In this document: positions 1-41,650 of the stretch, piece by piece
Layout of the letters: each line of letters starts with the position of its first letter
How positions within the stretch are numbered: the stretch's first letter is position 1
Source: Struthio camelus
Taxonomy: Eukaryota
Direction: 5' to 3'
Assembly (NCBI RefSeq): GCF_040807025.1
Contig: NC_090942.1
Coordinates: 204,182,640 to 204,246,639, forward strand
DNA length: 64,000 bases
Notes under the pieces: generated by a model
Databases searched by the model: none
Told to the model about the DNA's origin: nothing
What the model saw: only the letters and a program-made list of their open reading frames with translations
Program-made: the position numbers and the translations under genes

Positions 1-1280
1 AAATATATATACAAAAAATTTATATACATCTGCTAAGATGTTATAAGGTTGCTCTTTTACAGAATAAACGCGAATGTTTTGACTTTAAAAAGAAATAAGA
101 GAAAGAGGGACATGTGAAATACAAGTAAAAATGTGATTGAGCTAATGGTTCTTATGCGTTACAAAGAAGATGTAAGAACGTGTGGACTAGTGTCTCTTAT
201 AAACAGAAGTTGTATTTGGAAGGTATGAAATTTAATTTTTCTTGGCCAAGACACAAGAACAGCAAGTATGCTATATTAATAAATTCAGCTGTCCTGTGTT
301 GGATTAGATTTTGAGGACAATTTGAAAAATTTTAAAAGTTGTATGAAAACTAGTCTTTAAAAAAAGCCTTCAGCAGTATCTTTGAGGCAATAGCAATAGA
401 AGGATTCTTCATTCTTGAATGTTTCCAGTACTTGTAATCAGATTGCATTATAATAAGACTTTCACCGCGATAGATGACTAACTTTGAGTGTTAACATGTA
501 CTTGTGACTCTCAAGTATTTGATTAATGAAGTTGTACAATTGAGTAGGGTCCTATCCATTTTCTTAATTTTGTATAAAATGAACTAGTGTATGTTACAAG
601 GCATGTTAAGACTGACATTTTAAATACAATACTGTGTTAGTTGTCTTGCACGTTACCAACTTAAACTTAAAACTTTCCTTTGCAATAATATTCACAAGCT
701 CAAAAGTTTCTAATACTTATGCATTGGCTTTACGATACAGTCTGTATATGCTTTTAAGGAATAAATTCAGCTTAAAGAAGAGTTAGTTTTTGGCCTATGC
801 TAACTCCTTTCGGTTTCTCTAAGGGGTTTAGATGCTGAGGTCTTCTCTTGGCAACAGAGGGCTCTGCAAAAGGTATAGAAGGGAAGTAAGGGAAGGTCCT
901 ACGAACGCTGAAGACCTTTCTTAACGTTACCCAAACAAAAAGCAAAGGACAAAGACATGCAACGTGGAAGTTTTTCACAAATTAAAGCTTAGTAGGGGAA
1001 TAAACTGTATAAATGCTTGGTTTAAACAAGTAATTCTTGTACCTTTTTTTTGTTCATTCATTTTTAAAGACATTTCCCAATTTTAATAATCACATTACTT
1101 TAGAGTATTATTGAAATTATGGGATTATTTAAGAAATGCACAGAATTAGTAATAAAAATTTTTTCCATAAGGGAAATCATAATTTTTGGTCGACAACTGT
1201 AATTACCATTGTAACTACCATTAGGAATGCTTTTCCAATAAATGCTAAAAGTGTATGTATGTATACATACACAAATGTGC

Positions 1281-1298
1281 ATATATATATATATATAT
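1281..1298. repeat. (AT)9 microsatellite
   Basis: atatatatatatatatat, visible directly. Confidence 0.9.
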
Positions 1299-4200
1299 TT
1301 ATATGTAAAAATGTATTGGAATATATATCTGTGCCTATTTCATGTAATGTATATTGCTGTTCTTTGAGTCTTGCAATATTGGTATTTTTAGCAGTGTAAC
1401 TTAATCAGCGAGTCAGCTTCATCAGTTCTGTTCATGACCTGAATCATCAAGGAGGAAATTGGCTTAAACTATCTTCTCTAGCCTTATTGGAATGTCTTTC
1501 TTAAAGACCAAGTCCTGTTGACAACTTATTAAACCTAATGAAAATTCTTGTCATAATATTTGCTCTGTGAAAATAGGACTAAATAGCCTCACATATATTT
1601 TAGCAGTTGCTTAGTTTAATGTGTTTGCCCACTAAATTTTGTGTGATACAGGAGAACTCCTTTTTTTGAACTGCTCCTGCATGGGAACCGTCATTTGGTT
1701 CACAGACTGTAGAGTAGTTTAGGTTGGAAGGACTTTCAGGAGTCATCCAGTACAACTCTTTTAACTTGAAGAGGGTCTAACTGTAGCTCAGGTTACTCAG
1801 GGAGATGTGTGGAAATCTTGTATTTTGAAATTAGATCAGTATTTTTCATTTACAGTTATTTAAAGTTACTACCTCTGGGATAATTGGAACTATTTTTGGT
1901 TACTGTAACTTCAGAGATTTTACATACAGGTCCTGATCTGTGAGTAAAAGCTGAAGGTGAAAGGTAAGAAGGGGAAGGAGAAGGCTTTTTTACTTCAACT
2001 CCTAACTGGCAGCTTAACTTTTAATGAGCTAGTCATTGGAGTGAACTGGTAGAAATTCTGAGGAAAACATGCATAGTATATACTCACAAATATCCCATAT
2101 ATTCTATTTTTGGGTGCCCAGCGAGTGATTTTTAACGGCTTCAATGATTAATGTCTTTAAAATGTAGCCCTCTTTCAGTTAACTACAATTCTGTGTAAAT
2201 CAGTAGCTGATAGTTGCCATTCTGTTCTGTCAGTCCATGATGGAAGGGAAAAATTTATGATTGCAGAAAACTATGCCAGAATTACTTCCTGGAAAGACGT
2301 TTGGAAATAGTTCTTCTTACTTGGAAGAACTTAATGACGTAAGCCAGACTTAGAAGAAAACAATACATTCGAGTAAGAGGTACAGAAATGTCTTACCTAT
2401 TTTGTCAAATGTGAAGTTTGCCAGAGAGCAAGTTCAGATTCCACCTAATGAGAACAGGTAAGAAAATCAGTAGTATGAGTTAATATTTTGTGGTGAACAC
2501 AACTGTGATAACTGTGTAGTTATTTATGAAGTTGCTGATTTTTGATGTGCAAATATGGCTGATATGGGAAATATGTTTTAATGAGGTTTTTTTGGATGCT
2601 GTATCTTATTTTGGTCACCATGTTTTAGATGAAAGGTGAGTGGCTAATTTCACATGAATCAGAAATTGCATTTCTTGGCCACAGACACTTGAAGGGCACT
2701 ATATCATCTGTCTTCTGATATCAACAGATATTTCCGTTGGTATCTTTTTCATGTGCTAAGTTATCCAATGATAAATATTCCATTTCATATAAATCTTTTG
2801 ACAGTTTTGTTACAATGAAAACTGTGTTATTTGGAGACAAGGTTTTAAATTTCTTTAGACTGCTTAAATTACAAGGCATGTTCCCAGGAAAAAAAGTAAT
2901 GTCAGTTCGTCAAAACAGTGTCAGTAATCTCGGTTAAAAGAGGTGGTCAGTTTTGTCACTACTTCTGTTTTCATTTTCAATGTGAGAGGAATGGCGTCTG
3001 ATGAAAGCTCTCCTGTATCTCATCCAGGTTCCTTTTCAAAACTGATAAATTTCATGATGTTATGGAAAGTGGATTTAAGAACGTACTGATATCTTTCAAA
3101 GATTAGAAGAATCATCCTAGCAGTTTTCTGTTTACCTAGACTATTGATATCAATGGTGATTGAAATGTAAGAGCATTGCTGTGCATGGTATATACTGAAT
3201 GCTCAAGAAATCTCATATACAATGCTTGTAGAAGGGCAGAATCTATGATATATTAAATATAGAATATATATGTAATTTGAAAACAGGGAATGCTCAATAT
3301 TTCCATGCAGATCTAGTTTCTACCGTTGACATTAAAAGGAATTGAGAATGTGAGGAAATCTCACTTATTTTTAATACTGCACCTAAAATAACTAGCAAGT
3401 ACAGTGCCGTAGTTGCATTTCGGTCAGATTTTCTAAAAGCAAATTATTCATGTAAATACAACCGTTTTGAGGTTTGTTGGTATTACTGAGTTCTAAAGTC
3501 TATTATTAGAATCATGCAAAAGAAGTCGCAGGAAATTTGTGTTTTGCATTGTGTGAAGAGTTGTCCTTTGACAATAGTGTTTGCTTTCCTGTGATCCCGT
3601 TGTCCTTTCTAGGATTTTCCTGAAGTTTATATTACACTTTACTACACACCCTTTGTCTTTCATGGTCTACTTTTCCCCCTGTAATTGTATATCATCCGTT
3701 TTTCTTGTTCTCTTCCAGTTTGAGTCCTTTTACCAGATACTGTGTGACTTCAGAGGTTCTTAACTGCCTCCATACCTATTTCTCTAGTAACAGTTTAACC
3801 CTCCTCTCTCTAGCTACTCAGTTTTAACTCCTTGTTATGAGTACTTATGGGTGGCTTCAGGAGAAGGGTTGAAGCAGGCCACTACTCAAAAGAAGAATGG
3901 GCTAGTGAGAAAAGAAGCCCTGAGATGATCCATGTCTCATTGTTATGCTCTACAAAGAGTTTGAGTATCAAAGAACAGAGCTTTCAGGTGGGCTAGAATA
4001 TCAACCAGCTGTGACTCGGCTGCTTCGTCATAACTGCTTATTGATATTCCCTTCTTTTTGATATTTTAGACATGCCGTAGAATGGTGGACTTAACTGCAG
4101 TAACTTGTTCATACACACATAGTAAAAAGTCGTCTAGGTCATGATCTGTCTGGGTTAGGACTGAGTTTTTGTCACCACCTGGGCTCCTTCGAATACGAAA

Positions 4201-38934: not shown

Positions 38935-39650
38935 GAAAAGGCAGCCTACATGAATAGAGGGACTGTCAGCAACCTCATGAAGGTCAGCAAAGGGAAATGT
39001 AAAGCCCTACACTGGGGACAGCGTAACTTCGTGCAGTAATGTAGTCTGGGCCCAGACGGGCTAGGAAGCAGCTTTGCAGAAAAGGATCTGGGTGTCCTGA
39101 TGGAGAGCAAGTTGAAGGTGGCCAACCATGTCATGGGCAGTATTAGCAAGAGTGTAGCCAAGCAGGTTTAAGGGAAGTGATCTTTCCTCTCTTCTCGTCA
39201 CTTCTGAGACTGCAGCTGGAGCACTGTGTCCAGTGTTGGGCTCTTTGGGACAAGAAGGGTGTATGGAAGTGAGTCCAGTGGAGGCGACTGAGATGACAAT
39301 GGGCTGGAGCATATCACCTAAGTGGGGAGAGAGAGCTGCGTCTAGTTCAGTTTGTAAAACAGAAAGGTGGGCATGGGTGGGAAAATCTTACCGCTGTCTT
39401 CTACTACCTAATGGGAGGGTGTAGAGAAGAGGAAGCCAGGCTCATCTTGGAGGTGCTCAGACAGGGTAAAGGGTGACAAGATGCAAATTGAAACAAGGGA
39501 AATTCTGCTCTTAGGAGAGCATGTGGGGACTGCAACAAGTTACTTGGAGAGTTTGTGGAACTTCCACTCAAAGCTCAACAAGCCCCTGCATAACCTGAAG
39601 GTAGCACTGATATCCTTCAGGAGGTTCTCTCCAAACTTTTTTTATGAATA
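38935..39650 (+). mobile_element. CR1 LINE fragment A (older, degraded 3' end of ORF2 plus 3' UTR)
   Basis: The plus-strand translation contains stops and frameshifts. It reads NLMKVSKGKCKALHWGQRNF...AEKDLGVLMESKLKVANHVMGSISKS...LEHCVQCWAL...NGLEHIT.. ending in LESLWNFHSKLNKPLHNL. These are recognisable homologues of the CR1 ORF2 C-terminal peptides NLMKFNKGKCRVLHLGRNNP...[13 protein letters not shown]...HLEYCVQFWAP...LEIFKTRLD. Confidence 0.75.
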
Positions 39651-41329
39651 TGTACACTGGGAATGAGGAAGTCTTCTACAATTTTCTGTGTATTCAGGAT
39701 ACAGAGAAGGCAGAGTTATTGAATGCTGCCTTTGCTTCAGTCTTCACTGCTAAGGCCAGCCCTCAGGAATTCCAGACCCTGGAGACAAGAGAGGAAGTCT
39801 GGAGAAAGGAAGACTCTCCCTTGGTGGAGGAGGATCAGGTTAGAGATCTTTTGTCCAAACTTGACATCCATAAATCCATGGGCCCTGACGGGATGCATCT
39901 GCAAGTGCTGCGGGAGCTGGCGGATGTTATTGCTAGGCCACTCTCCACCATCTTGGAAAGGTCCTGGAGATCAGGAGAGGTGCCTGAGGACTGGAAGAAA
40001 GCCAATGTCACCCCAGTCTTCCAGAAGGGCAAGAAGGAGGAGCCAGGAAACAACAGGCCTGTCAGCCTCACCTCCATCCCTGGAAAGGTGATGGAACAGC
40101 TCCTCCTGGAGGTCATCACTAAGCATGTGGAGGACAAGAAGGTGATCAGGAGTAGTCAGCACGGATTCACCAAAGGGAAATCATGCTTGACCAATCTGAT
40201 AGCCTTCTATGACGGAATGACTGGCTGGGTAGATGAAGGGAGAGCAGTGGATGTTGCCTGCCTGGACTTGAGCAAGGCTTTGGACACTGTCTCCCATCAC
40301 ATCCTCCTAGGTAAGCTCAGGAAGTGTGGGTTGGAGGAGTGGCCAGTGAGGTGGCTTGAGAACTGGCTGGATGGCCGAGCTCAGAGGGTTGTGGTGAATG
40401 GCGCAGAGTCAAGTTGGAGGCCTGTGGCTAGCGGTGTCCCCCAGGGGTCAGTCCTGGGTCCAGTCTTGTTCAATGTATTCATCAATGACCTGGAGGAAGG
40501 GACAGCGTGCACCCTCAGCAAGTTGGCTGATGATACTAAACTGGGGGGCCAGGGGGTGACTGACACACCAGAAGGTTGTGCTGCCATTCAGAGGGAGCTG
40601 GAGAGGCTGGAGAGGTGGGCGGAGAGGAACCTCCTGAAGGTCAACCAAGGCAAGTGCAGGGTCCTGCCCCTGGGGAGGAATAACCCCATGCACCAGTACA
40701 GGCTGGGGGTTCACCTGCTGGAAAGCAGCTCTGCAGAGGACGTGGGAGTCCTGGTGGACAACAAGTTAAGCGTGAGCCAGCAGTGTGCCCTTGTGGCCAA
40801 GAAGGCCAATGGTCTCCTGGGGTGCATTAGGCAGAGTGTTGCCAGCAGGTGGAGGGAGGGGATCCTGCCCCTCTACTCAGCCCCTGTGAGGCCTCACCTG
40901 GAGTGCTGTGTCCAATTCTGGGCTCCCCAGTACAAGAGAGACATGGCACTCCTGGAGAAAGTCCAGTGGAGGGCTACAAAGATGATTAGAGGGCTGGAGC
41001 CCCTCTCCTCTGAAGAAAGACTGCAAGAGCTGGGCCTGTTTAGCCTGGAGAAGAGAAGACTGAGAGGGGATCTCATCAATGTGTACAAATATCTGAAGGG
41101 GGAGTGTCAAGAGGATGAGGCCAGCCTCTTCTCCGTGGTGCCCAGCAACAGGACAAGAGGCAACGGGCAGAAACTGAACCACAGGAAGTTCCATCTGAAC
41201 CTGAGAAAAAACTTCTTCACTGTGAGGGTGACTGAGCATTGGAACAGGTTGCCCAGAGAGGTGGTAGAGTCTCCTTCCCTGGAGACATTCAAAAGCCGTC
41301 TGGATGTGATCCTGGGCAATATGCTCTAG
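39644..41329 (+). CDS. CR1 ORF2 reverse-transcriptase remnant (561 codons without stop; not a host gene)
   Basis: Same evidence as CR1 fragment B. The frame is open from the truncation point to TAG at about 41330. Its openness suggests a relatively recent insertion, but with no 5' half it cannot be autonomous. Confidence 0.85.
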
Positions 41330-41388
41330 CTGCCCCTCCAGGCACTAGGTCATCTCTAGAGGTTCATTCTGACCTCACCCATTCTGTG
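39651..41388 (+). mobile_element. CR1 LINE fragment B (younger, 5'-truncated; complete RT domain to 3' terminus)
   Basis: An uninterrupted 561-codon frame carries hallmark CR1 ORF2 motifs ([111 protein letters not shown]). The 3' end has the CR1-typical octamers cATTCTGAcctcaccCATTCTGTGtttcat at about 41365-41388. There is no endonuclease domain or ORF1, so the copy is 5'-truncated. Confidence 0.95.
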
Positions 41389-41510
41389 TTTCATAGCAGT
41401 GCTGTAAAATACCTGAGCCTTTGAAGTCTCTCACTAAGGCAAAAAGAGCATTTGCAGTCAACGCTGAGCTAAGTGGAACAGTGACTGTCCTCTGTTCCTC
41501 ACTTATTGCT

Positions 41511-41650
41511 GCCCCCTCCCCTTTTTTTTTCCCAGGAGGTTTTTTTTTTTTCCCCCCCACCCTTCTTTCCTTGTTGTCAGCATGTTCTGCTTTTTTTTGG
41601 TAAGAAAAGGAAGGAAGAGGTAAAGTCTCTCTTTTTTTTTTCCCCCCCCT
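41511..41650. repeat. Pyrimidine-rich low-complexity block (T9-T11 and C7-C8 runs) flanking the CR1 3' end
   Basis: ccccctcccc T9 cccaggaggt T11 C7 ac ... T10 C8. A G11 run follows at 41764-41774. Confidence 0.85.

Follow-up and report, generated by a model that had tools for sequence, protein, structure and literature searches.

In the 64-kb window analysed here (the whole stretch of ostrich DNA), two copies of CR1, a non-LTR retrotransposon common in birds, lie head-to-tail on the + strand, in AT-rich DNA (35-41% GC). Their homology to CR1 is far above chance, with E ~1e-21 for the upstream copy (fragment A) and E=0 for the downstream copy (fragment B), and the coordinates of both are collected in Table 1. 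The last coding exon of MPHOSPH8 is found approximately 5 kb from the pair; the gene is on the opposite strand, and the CR1 copies lie downstream of it. The large MPHOSPH8 exon has an 80-86% match to birds, and a motif search for PSPC1-type RRM exons nearby found none. An Rfam scan of the 64-kb window at gathering thresholds gave no match, and TRF and direct-repeat scans of the A/B region returned nothing relevant. The locus is ordinary transposon debris.

Table 1. Features of the CR1 pair, in window coordinates.
Feature	Position	Strand	Evidence or remark
Fragment A, an old, decayed, 5'-truncated CR1 3' end	38950..39653	+	tblastn, DNA identity
Terminal octamers of A, two degenerate units TTTTTTATGAATATGT (consensus GATTCTGTGATTCTGT)	39638..39653	+	CR1 3' consensus alignment
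561-codon ATG-to-stop ORF	39644..41329	+	open from just past TGA 39608-39610
42-bp spacer from A tail to B	39654..39695	+	CR1-like only in last 12 nt
Octamer-like 12-mer TTCTGTGTATTC adjoining first base of B	39684..39695	+	sequence, motif count
Fragment B, a 5'-truncated CR1	39696..41392	+	blastn, tblastn against ostrich CR1
RT domain RVT_1 (ORF aa 130-341)	40031..40666	+	Pfam, E=1.3e-29
3' UTR of B	41330..41380	+	~17 nt missing relative to other CR1s, including 5' arm of conserved hairpin
Octamer of B, ATTCTGTG, then TTTC	41381..41392	+	single exact unit, 41381-41388

Fragment A comprises ORF2 aa 722-946 followed by a 3' UTR and a tail of degenerate octamers. When an intact ostrich ORF2 was used as the tblastn query, aa 722-803 (38950-39165) and aa 805-946 (39171-39569) were recovered in different frames, with protein identities of 46% and 36% and with at least five stops, a frameshift and a 10-aa gap. 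These results bear out an earlier description of A, made from the sequence without database searches (hereafter the sequence-only reading), as riddled with stops and frameshifts. At the DNA level, A is ~65-70% identical to other CR1s, and ~70% identical to the ostrich consensus over the aligned blocks. Its 3' end is also recognizable, as a local alignment of 39540-39653 with the CR1 3' consensus extends through 39653 with a score of 39, a value reached by none of 2000 shuffled sequences (mean 18.9, maximum 38). On these sequence comparisons, A is CR1-derived, ancient and fully decayed.

Fragment B comprises ORF2 from about aa 420 to aa 962, the stop codon, a 3' UTR and one octamer. It does not contain ORF2 aa 1 to ~419 and hence has no endonuclease; Pfam finds RVT_1 alone in its ORF, with no Exo_endo_phos, and tblastn detected no endonuclease-coding sequence anywhere in the 64-kb window. 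The sequence-only reading had also considered B to be 5'-truncated, without endonuclease and non-autonomous. Since the endonuclease is missing, B cannot be autonomous, and by the intact-CR1 criteria of Galbraith et al. 2021, which require an endonuclease N-terminal to the RT within a single ORF together with the 3' structure, it is neither full-length nor intact. The position of its 5' end does need correction. B had been thought to start at 39651, within a few bases of the terminus of A, and alignment with ostrich copies moves the start to 39696 (with the end at 41392), which leaves a 42-bp spacer if A ends at 39653. The 561-codon frame is real and runs from ATG to stop, and it is open across the RT domain and the C-terminal region as first described, but it does not belong entirely to B. 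Because B begins at 39696, codons 1-17 (39644-39694), including the ATG, are read through from the tail of A and the spacer; codon 18 straddles the junction, and codons 19-561 are CR1 ORF2.

The 3' end of B is matched by a CR1 3'-end HMM at 41342-41392 (E=3e-7) and carries a single octamer where several canonical units had been reported. With respect to membership in the CR1 clade, RT homology is present in both B (90%) and A (36-46%), and the (ATTCTRTG)n 3' end is represented by one exact unit in B and two degenerate units in A. The 3' UTR of B is far more diverged than its ORF. Upon folding, ostrich copy L004 forms the canonical GGUUGGA...UCCAACC stem, and the only stem obtained for B is a short alternative one of 6 bp; the z-scores are not significant.

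Taken together, these data indicate that A and B represent two independent insertions of very different age, rather than one rearranged copy. A and B overlap within the element (aa 722-946 plus the 3' UTR), and where blastn aligns them (A 38968-39243 with B 40625-40925) their mutual identity is only 65%; identity to ostrich copies is ~93% for B and ~70% for A. A single CR1 that was internally rearranged, or whose 3' part was tandemly duplicated, would fit two fragments that are nearly contiguous on the same strand. It would not be expected to yield homologous 3' parts of such different divergence, nor five stops and a frameshift in A with none in B, and we consider it highly improbable; the unequal divergence contradicts a single rearranged copy. 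The original proposal of an old A beside a younger B is thereby upheld, and neither of the two outcomes that it had named as contrary to it (one rearranged copy, or a B as diverged as A) was observed.

To place B among its relatives, we used CR1 loci from Struthio camelus australis (GCA_000698965.1; L002, L003, L004, L006 and L007) together with the N308_* annotated fragments of 246 aa. By blastn, 39696-41392 is 92.5-92.8% identical to L002, L004, L006 and L007, which are mutually 98.7-99.7% identical, and by tblastn B has 90% protein identity to ostrich ORF2 aa 417-962. The best protein matches to B are from ostrich (up to 91.5%, over the C-terminal part) and kiwi (82-84%), and the best match over the full ORF is 84%. 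Four ostrich copies (L002, L003, L004 and L006) contain open frames of 962-1002 codons, and L004, the one copy scanned with Pfam, encodes both Exo_endo_phos and RVT_1. Annotation records an open frame across the same C-terminal 246 codons in at least 69 ostrich copies. B shares with the ostrich copies the catalytic motif LADD and the ATTCTGTG tail; a reading of LADD (for FADD) as a mutation that inactivated B was dropped, since the intact ostrich copies also have LADD. B differs from these copies in that it is truncated at about codon 420 and has no endonuclease, carries a 6-nt insertion and a 3-nt deletion that are both in frame, has lost one arm of the 3' hairpin through a deletion of ~17 nt, and has only one octamer.

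An open 1.7-kb RT frame had been regarded as unusual by comparison with chicken-type CR1 copies. Galbraith et al. 2021 (PMC8665684) report that intact CR1s are numerous in kiwis and in several further orders of birds, and with such open or intact copies in ostrich, kiwis and several bird orders, chicken-type decay is the wrong yardstick. An open CR1 RT frame is ordinary for the family to which B belongs and needs no special explanation, because the differences between B and the ostrich consensus are mostly synonymous or shared among ostrich copies, its private decay is ~1-3%, and 14-49% of copies simulated with that much decay remain free of stops. B may belong to the CR1-Y family, for which the evidence is indirect, namely its nearest relatives in ostrich and kiwi and the published pattern in which almost all palaeognath CR1s are most similar to CR1-Y, with many intact copies in kiwis (Galbraith et al. 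2021, PMC8665684).

The divergence between B and the ostrich copies is shaped by selection, with a dN/dS of 0.29 against the young ostrich consensus and differences distributed 26:23:48 over the three codon positions. A three-taxon division of the pairwise values assigns dS 0.0935 and dN 0.009 to the ostrich-consensus branch, and dS 0.0485 and dN 0.032 (dN/dS ~0.66) to the B branch, on which the changes are evenly spread over codon positions (17:12:18). Attributing all 47 polarised B-derived changes to decay after insertion had to be revised, as many of them are variants common to ostrich copies. Of the 23 differences from the ostrich majority that B shows in its C-terminal 245 aa, 15 recur in other ostrich copies and 8 are private; among the 69 ostrich matches listed, B shares L331 with 28, W403 with 26, and S456 and S551 with 23 each. 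The ostrich copies themselves show a median of 14 differences from their own majority in this region (range 2-38). The private decay of B would amount to about 1-3%, a value estimated indirectly by way of ostrich copies rather than from a subfamily consensus of its own genome. The simulated probability that no stop arises is 0.43-0.49 at 20 substitutions and 0.14-0.23 at 41-47. B has no frameshifts. Compared with the ostrich consensus, its ORF contains two indels, one of +6 nt and one of -3 nt, and if both occurred after insertion, the chance that they would both be in frame is roughly 4%. A 23-mer specific to B, placed across the 6-nt insertion, had 0 matches in a metagenome scan. Changes on the B lineage run preferentially from A/T to G/C and include many transversions, a mutation spectrum that is not predicted by simple local decay in AT-rich DNA; the spectra obtained as controls from older copies in ostrich were too noisy, and in part misaligned, and provide no calibration for it.

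These data also bear on the possibility that the RT-only ORF has been held open by selection, as an exapted RT-like host gene translated from the fortuitous ATG at 39644. The 1.63 kb without stop or frameshift and the in-frame state of both indels are what such a gene would show, and their joint chance under ~3% neutral decay is estimated at the percent level or below, from the simulated no-stop probabilities and assumed indel rates. However, the even distribution of changes on the B branch and its dN/dS argue against constraint at this locus, as do private changes at conserved residues (Y137N in GNYRP, an altered motif VVFLDFSKAFDTV at 414P, and H453P). Over the full ORF and over the C-terminal part alike, the top protein matches are in every case to ordinary CR1 copies, so that none emerged as a candidate ortholog, and neither the 561-aa ORF nor the C-terminal 245 aa of B was found on record as an exact protein. 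There is also an ascertainment bias, as B was flagged for its open frame. Exaptation is therefore very hard to credit, and we prefer an element that was open when it inserted and has decayed little.

The 42-bp spacer may be the original 3' flank of A, an extended tail of A, or a tiny third CR1 tail. The last of these, as a third CR1 3' end, finds no support beyond the 12-nt motif, as the similarity of the remaining spacer to CR1 3' ends is not significant (shuffle p=0.19), the CR1 3'-end HMM does not match the spacer, and a comparison of the spacer with CR1 internal sequence showed no similarity. At the 5' junction of B, the ostrich copies read ...GGTGACAA / AGGATACAGAG and the window reads ...TGTGTATTC / AGGATACAGAG. 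The junction microhomology that the sequence-only reading had proposed to look for is absent at this end, where the flank ends in C and the full-length element has A. The + strand of the 64 kb contains the motif TTCTGTG only 14 times, and B is flanked by two of these occurrences (39684 and 41382). The sequence at 41382-41392 (TTCTGTGT-TTC) repeats the 5' 12-mer save for a 1-nt indel. TTCTGTGTATTC on the 5' side and TTCTGTGT-TTC at the 3' end thus form a candidate direct repeat, of which the right copy is indistinguishable from the octamer tail of B itself. TTCTGTGTATTC may represent an earlier CR1-type tail that was targeted by B, and may also be the left copy of a target-site duplication.

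The same motif could have another origin, in which the 3' part of the spacer and B form one chimeric insertion. Here the reverse transcriptase would have jumped, at about codon 420, to another CR1 RNA at its 3' end and copied the octamer of this RNA and perhaps ~30 nt more. Template switching of this kind by the CR1 RT has been proposed for chimeric SINEs in birds (PMC5729268), and it would place a CR1-tail motif exactly at the 5' end of B with no microhomology to the upstream sequence of the full-length element. Yet the CR1-like stretch is only 12 nt long, with the rest of the spacer unlike CR1 3' ends or internal sequence, and a target-site duplication accounts equally well for a motif that is also found at the 3' end of B. 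We consider a template switch improbable.

Whether B was directed to this site is a separate question, and the adjacency of A and B could quite possibly be pure chance, with the 12-mer either a part of the A tail or a coincidence. CR1s are numerous and clustered in AT-rich DNA, such that some copies will inevitably adjoin older ones. CR1s adjoin each other in different arrangements even in the few loci examined: the 5' end of the young ostrich copy L004 (1054) adjoins an old inverted CR1 piece (802-1052), and at locus L009 of Grus two same-strand CR1 3' ends lie 144 bp apart. Given a density of roughly one CR1 3' end for every 10-20 kb, we estimate that ~0.1-0.4% of insertions would land no more than 42 bp downstream of a tail on the same strand, and at ~10^5 copies per genome this would produce hundreds of such adjacencies. 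In addition, the octamer is missing from the 5' flank of the three other 5'-truncated ostrich copies inspected for it. On the other side, when the two occurrences at B are set aside, the remaining 12 occurrences of TTCTGTG give an estimated probability of ~0.002 that one would end exactly at the 5' junction of B, and CR1s have a published preference for TTCT or octamer-like targets.

Published insertions offer a close comparison. Among the youngest insertions of CR1 subfamily I in coscoroba, elements end in one octamer, the 3' flank starts with TTC, and the flanks have ~38% GC (St John & Quinn 2008, PMC2612034); preintegration sites homologous to the octamer were described by Silva & Burch, as cited in St John & Quinn 2008 (PMC2612034). 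B likewise has a single octamer, a 3' flank of TTC and an octamer-like target, and its flanks have 35-41% GC. In contrast, the coscoroba insertions belong to the waterfowl lineage and their octamer is TTCTGTGA where that of B is TTCTGTGT, and the octamer-like sequence of B is located at the 5' flank, probably in or just beyond an older CR1 tail. The position of B fits the published preference for octamer-like, AT-rich targets, although one locus cannot prove targeting. Hence, we would like to emphasize that B was only plausibly targeted, the case being built on one locus and on a motif that was noticed post hoc. A more specific suggestion, that the octamer tails of old CR1s serve as homing sites for new CR1s and so build head-to-tail arrays, is offered tentatively and may well prove wrong.

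We propose that both copies were dead on arrival and were inserted in the same orientation at widely separated times. B would have been made by target-primed reverse transcription from the RNA of a CR1 lineage with an intact ORF2, whose closest present relatives are the ostrich copies. Reverse transcription would have halted ~419 codons into ORF2, in which case B never possessed an endonuclease, ORF1 or promoter. Its frame is probably open because it was open at the start and has undergone only ~1-3% private neutral decay, and the ATG of the ORF would be a fortuitous contribution from the decayed tail of A. The choice of target is plausible, as B follows directly upon an octamer-like sequence, 42 bp past the terminus of A; the tail of a CR1 RNA may prime on octamer-like (TTCT...) targets, which old CR1 tails could supply. 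Compared to mammalian L1, CR1 has a hairpin and an 8-nt microsatellite in place of poly(A), its truncation is more severe, and its target-site duplications are weak or absent (Suh 2014/2017, and established knowledge). B nevertheless resembles the dead-on-arrival LINEs known from mammalian L1, in which incomplete target-primed reverse transcription leaves an immobile, 3'-anchored fragment whose RT frame can remain open for some time. We assign a probability of roughly 0.85 to the whole of this account, namely two dead CR1 insertions, the younger with an open frame at the start and little decay since, and a plausible octamer-like target.

The locus itself is minor, a routine repeat of the kind that RepeatMasker would mask. 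As a single example, it is consistent with the reported preference of CR1 for octamer-like, AT-rich targets, and homing to old tails, if true, would merely extend these published preferences. Recently active CR1 lineages, here of the ostrich type, normally contain long open RT frames, and genome scans should not flag these as unusual; in the annotation of bird genomes, such frames also repeatedly lead to genes being misnamed.

Two same-strand CR1-like pieces lie side by side in the window, one with an open frame and one without, and this basic observation of the sequence-only reading is real. A search of the 64 kb with B, the younger copy, turned up similar DNA in just one other place, directly upstream on the same strand (38968-39243, 65% identical to 40625-40925). 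A, the older fragment, and B both cover ORF2 aa 722-946 and the 3' UTR of CR1, and their identity to the ostrich consensus is unequal (~93% for B, ~70% across aligned blocks for A); together with the 65% mutual identity, this shows that they are two CR1 copies, not one. Neither a single rearranged copy nor a B as diverged as A, the two outcomes named beforehand as speaking against this view, was found. A was mapped by tblastn of the intact ORF2 of ostrich locus L004 against the window (see table); its two segments in different frames, five stops and a 10-residue gap confirm that it is broken by stops and frameshift. Its 3' UTR and two degenerate octamers, the 8-nt terminal units of CR1 tails, align with the CR1 3' consensus up to 39653 (octamers TTTTTTATGAATATGT versus consensus GATTCTGTGATTCTGT), with a score equalled by 0 of 2000 shuffles. 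A is an old CR1 3' end, 5'-truncated and decayed throughout. A further CR1 3' end, a very short one, occurs on the minus strand at 1700-1757 (3'-end HMM, E=7e-5; 79% to the ostrich hairpin region across 47 nt by blastn).

The 561-codon ORF runs from ATG to stop at 39644-41329 (+), in a frame that begins right after a TGA at 39608-39610, and RVT_1 is its sole Pfam domain (aa 130-341, E=1.3e-29). Protein searches with this ORF returned thousands of CR1 ORF2 proteins from birds and turtles. The closest across its full length were from kiwi (82-84%) and the closest to its C-terminal 261 aa were dozens of annotated 246-aa ostrich fragments (83-90%); protein look-up gave no record matching the ORF or its C-terminal segment exactly. 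Some deposited CR1 RT frames in Rissa, Grus japonensis and Mycteria americana bear misleading names, such as 'transcription factor ETV6 isoform X1', 'mitochondrial enolase superfamily member 1' and 'leucine-rich single-pass membrane protein 1 isoform X1'. In the kittiwake Rissa tridactyla (locus L008, 1501-3165), an open 554-aa CR1 frame in an ETV6 intron is truncated nearly where B is.

DNA of seven ostrich loci with annotated fragments was fetched, and B aligns with these copies over 39696-41392 at 92.5-92.8%. Upstream of B's first base the ostrich copies run on as ...CCCTGGTGACAA before AGGATACAGAG, whereas the window has ...TTCTGTGTATTC; B therefore starts at 39696 and not, as previously placed, at 39651. 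In a 962-codon ORF2, this first base falls at about codon 420. The ATG at 39644, within A's decayed tail, and codons 1-17 are fortuitous read-through outside B. As previously noted, B has no endonuclease: the Pfam scan of the ORF found none, and endonuclease-coding sequence is absent across the window (tblastn, L004 ORF2), so B was never able to be autonomous. Several terminal octamers had been credited to B; it has one exact ATTCTGTG (41381-41388), then TTTC, and no array. Some 17 nt have been lost from its 3' UTR, and with them the 5' arm of the conserved hairpin; the canonical 3' stem forms in the folded L004 sequence but not in B. Three patches of a long T-run followed by a C-run lie shortly 3' of B at 41490-41650 (e.g., CCCCTTTTTTTTTTCCC, GGTTTTTTTTTTTTCCCCCCC and CTCTTTTTTTTTTTCCCCCCCC), in which TRF found no tandem array.

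An open RT frame had been considered unusual for chicken-type CR1 copies, but B's relatives were recently active and its distance from them is mostly not decay. Ostrich loci L002, L004, L006 and L007 are 98.7-99.7% identical among themselves and look like a subfamily active very recently. Open frames span 962-1002 codons in L002, L003, L004 and L006 (~800-3830 in each locus) and 803 codons in L007; the L004 frame, the one scanned, matches Exo_endo_phos and RVT_1. Annotation shows an open frame across the C-terminal 246 codons in at least 69 ostrich copies. Many intact CR1s are held by kiwis and several other bird orders, and palaeognath CR1s are nearly all CR1-Y (Galbraith et al. 2021, PMC8665684). 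The LADD catalytic motif of B, where FADD is usual, was rejected as a defect, being common to intact ostrich copies.

B lies 7.3% from the young ostrich consensus, and most of this distance is not decay; dN/dS is 0.29 and differences fall 26:23:48 by codon position. Polarised with Grus and Rissa copies as outgroups, the B branch carries 47 changes (34 non-synonymous, 13 synonymous; codon positions 17:12:18) and the ostrich branch 29 (10 and 19). Three-taxon branch lengths calculated from pairwise values (B, dS 0.0485, dN 0.032; ostrich consensus, dS 0.0935, dN 0.009), taken at face value, limit neutral decay in B to ~3% or less. B shows 23 differences from the ostrich majority in its last 245 aa, of which 15 also occur in other ostrich copies (among 69, L331 in 28, W403 in 26, S456 and S551 in 23 each, L391 and R339 in 18 each) and only 8 are private, giving an estimated private decay of ~1-2%. 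Among the ostrich copies, departures from the majority number 2-38, with a median of 14. Because of this spread and the recurrence of its variants, B is an ordinary, somewhat older member of the ostrich-type CR1 population. The within-family variants that it has in common with ostrich copies, LADD among them, suggest as host the ostrich, a close relative or at least a palaeognath. The simulated chance of zero stops is 0.43-0.49 at 20 substitutions and 0.14-0.23 at 41-47.

Measured against the consensus, B's ORF has two indels (+6 and -3 nt), neither of which shifts the frame, and B's 3' UTR is far more diverged than its ORF. B-branch substitutions run from A/T to G/C in 34 cases against 14 in reverse, a bias that contrasts with the 35-41% GC surroundings; A>C and T>G transversions make up 21 of 62, and CpG-decay changes number only 2. 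These features fit part of the change having arisen in an active master lineage, and the spectrum is partly due to variants inherited from active master copies. Selection on B itself is very unlikely: the oddities are no evidence for it, with an own-branch dN/dS of ~0.66 and private changes at conserved residues.

B had been thought to begin within a few bases of A's terminus. A's tail ends at ~39653, leaving a 42-bp spacer, and inspection for microhomology found none at B's 5' junction. The spacer had no match by the CR1 3'-end HMM or to CR1 internal sequence, and without its last 12 nt its CR1 likeness is not significant (shuffle p=0.19). A template switch onto the 3' end of a second CR1 RNA is possible, with little support. 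The last 12 nt, adjoining B, are a near-perfect CR1 tail motif, repeated at B's 3' end as TTCTGTGT-TTC. TTCTGTG occurs 14 times on the plus strand of the 64 kb, two of them flanking B; its chance of ending at the B junction is estimated at ~0.002 for a motif spotted post hoc. The youngest CR1 insertions have a single octamer, with TTCT next, in ~38% GC DNA (St John & Quinn, PMC2612034), and B resembles them in its one octamer, a 3' flank beginning TTC and flanks of 35-41% GC. According to Silva & Burch, as recounted in PMC2612034, the preintegration site includes the octamer's last six bases. Most economically, B's RNA tail would have primed on an octamer-like target 30-42 bp past A's tail, perhaps an extension of it or an older CR1 tail of very small size, and the motif on either side of B would be a short target-site duplication fused with B's own tail.

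We infer this priming beside A from one locus, and adjacency by chance is a serious rival. Even in the small set of fetched loci, CR1s often lie next to or within one another, in different geometries: in Grus (L009), same-strand CR1 3' ends at 2923-2985 and 3255-3312 are reported as 144 bp apart, and in L004 the young copy's 5' end (1054 onward) adjoins an old inverted CR1 piece (802-1052). The octamer is also absent from the 5' flank of three other truncated ostrich copies.

The CR1 pair lies in AT-rich DNA, ~5 kb past the last coding exon of MPHOSPH8 and on the opposite strand to this gene, whose coding exons descend from 63026 to 46242. MPHOSPH8 (MPP8) is one of the subunits of HUSH, a complex that silences retroelements. 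Its large exon is K/S/E-rich and 80-86% identical to the bird proteins found; the probe for further exons gave hits with E-values of 1e-11 to 1e-31.

Segments of fragment A and coding exons of MPHOSPH8 in the window
Feature	Positions	Strand	Basis
A, ORF2 aa 722-803	38950-39165	+	tblastn, 46% identity
A, ORF2 aa 805-946	39171-39569	+	tblastn, 36% identity
MPHOSPH8 coding exon	63026-62871	-	
MPHOSPH8 coding exon, large	61949-61095	-	
MPHOSPH8 coding exon	56435-56169	-	
MPHOSPH8 coding exon	55664-55536	-	
MPHOSPH8 coding exon	55452-55363	-	
MPHOSPH8 coding exon	54199-54029	-	
MPHOSPH8 coding exon	53197-53108	-	
MPHOSPH8 coding exon	~51377-51117	-	
MPHOSPH8 coding exon	48762-48529	-	
MPHOSPH8 coding exon	47064-46936	-	
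MPHOSPH8 coding exon	46331-46242	-	

The locus is ordinary transposon debris of a kind already known, an ancient CR1 3' end and, downstream of it, a younger CR1 that was dead on arrival and has so far escaped a stop in its RT frame. Tail-directed integration is the only lead from it, and a mildly interesting one.
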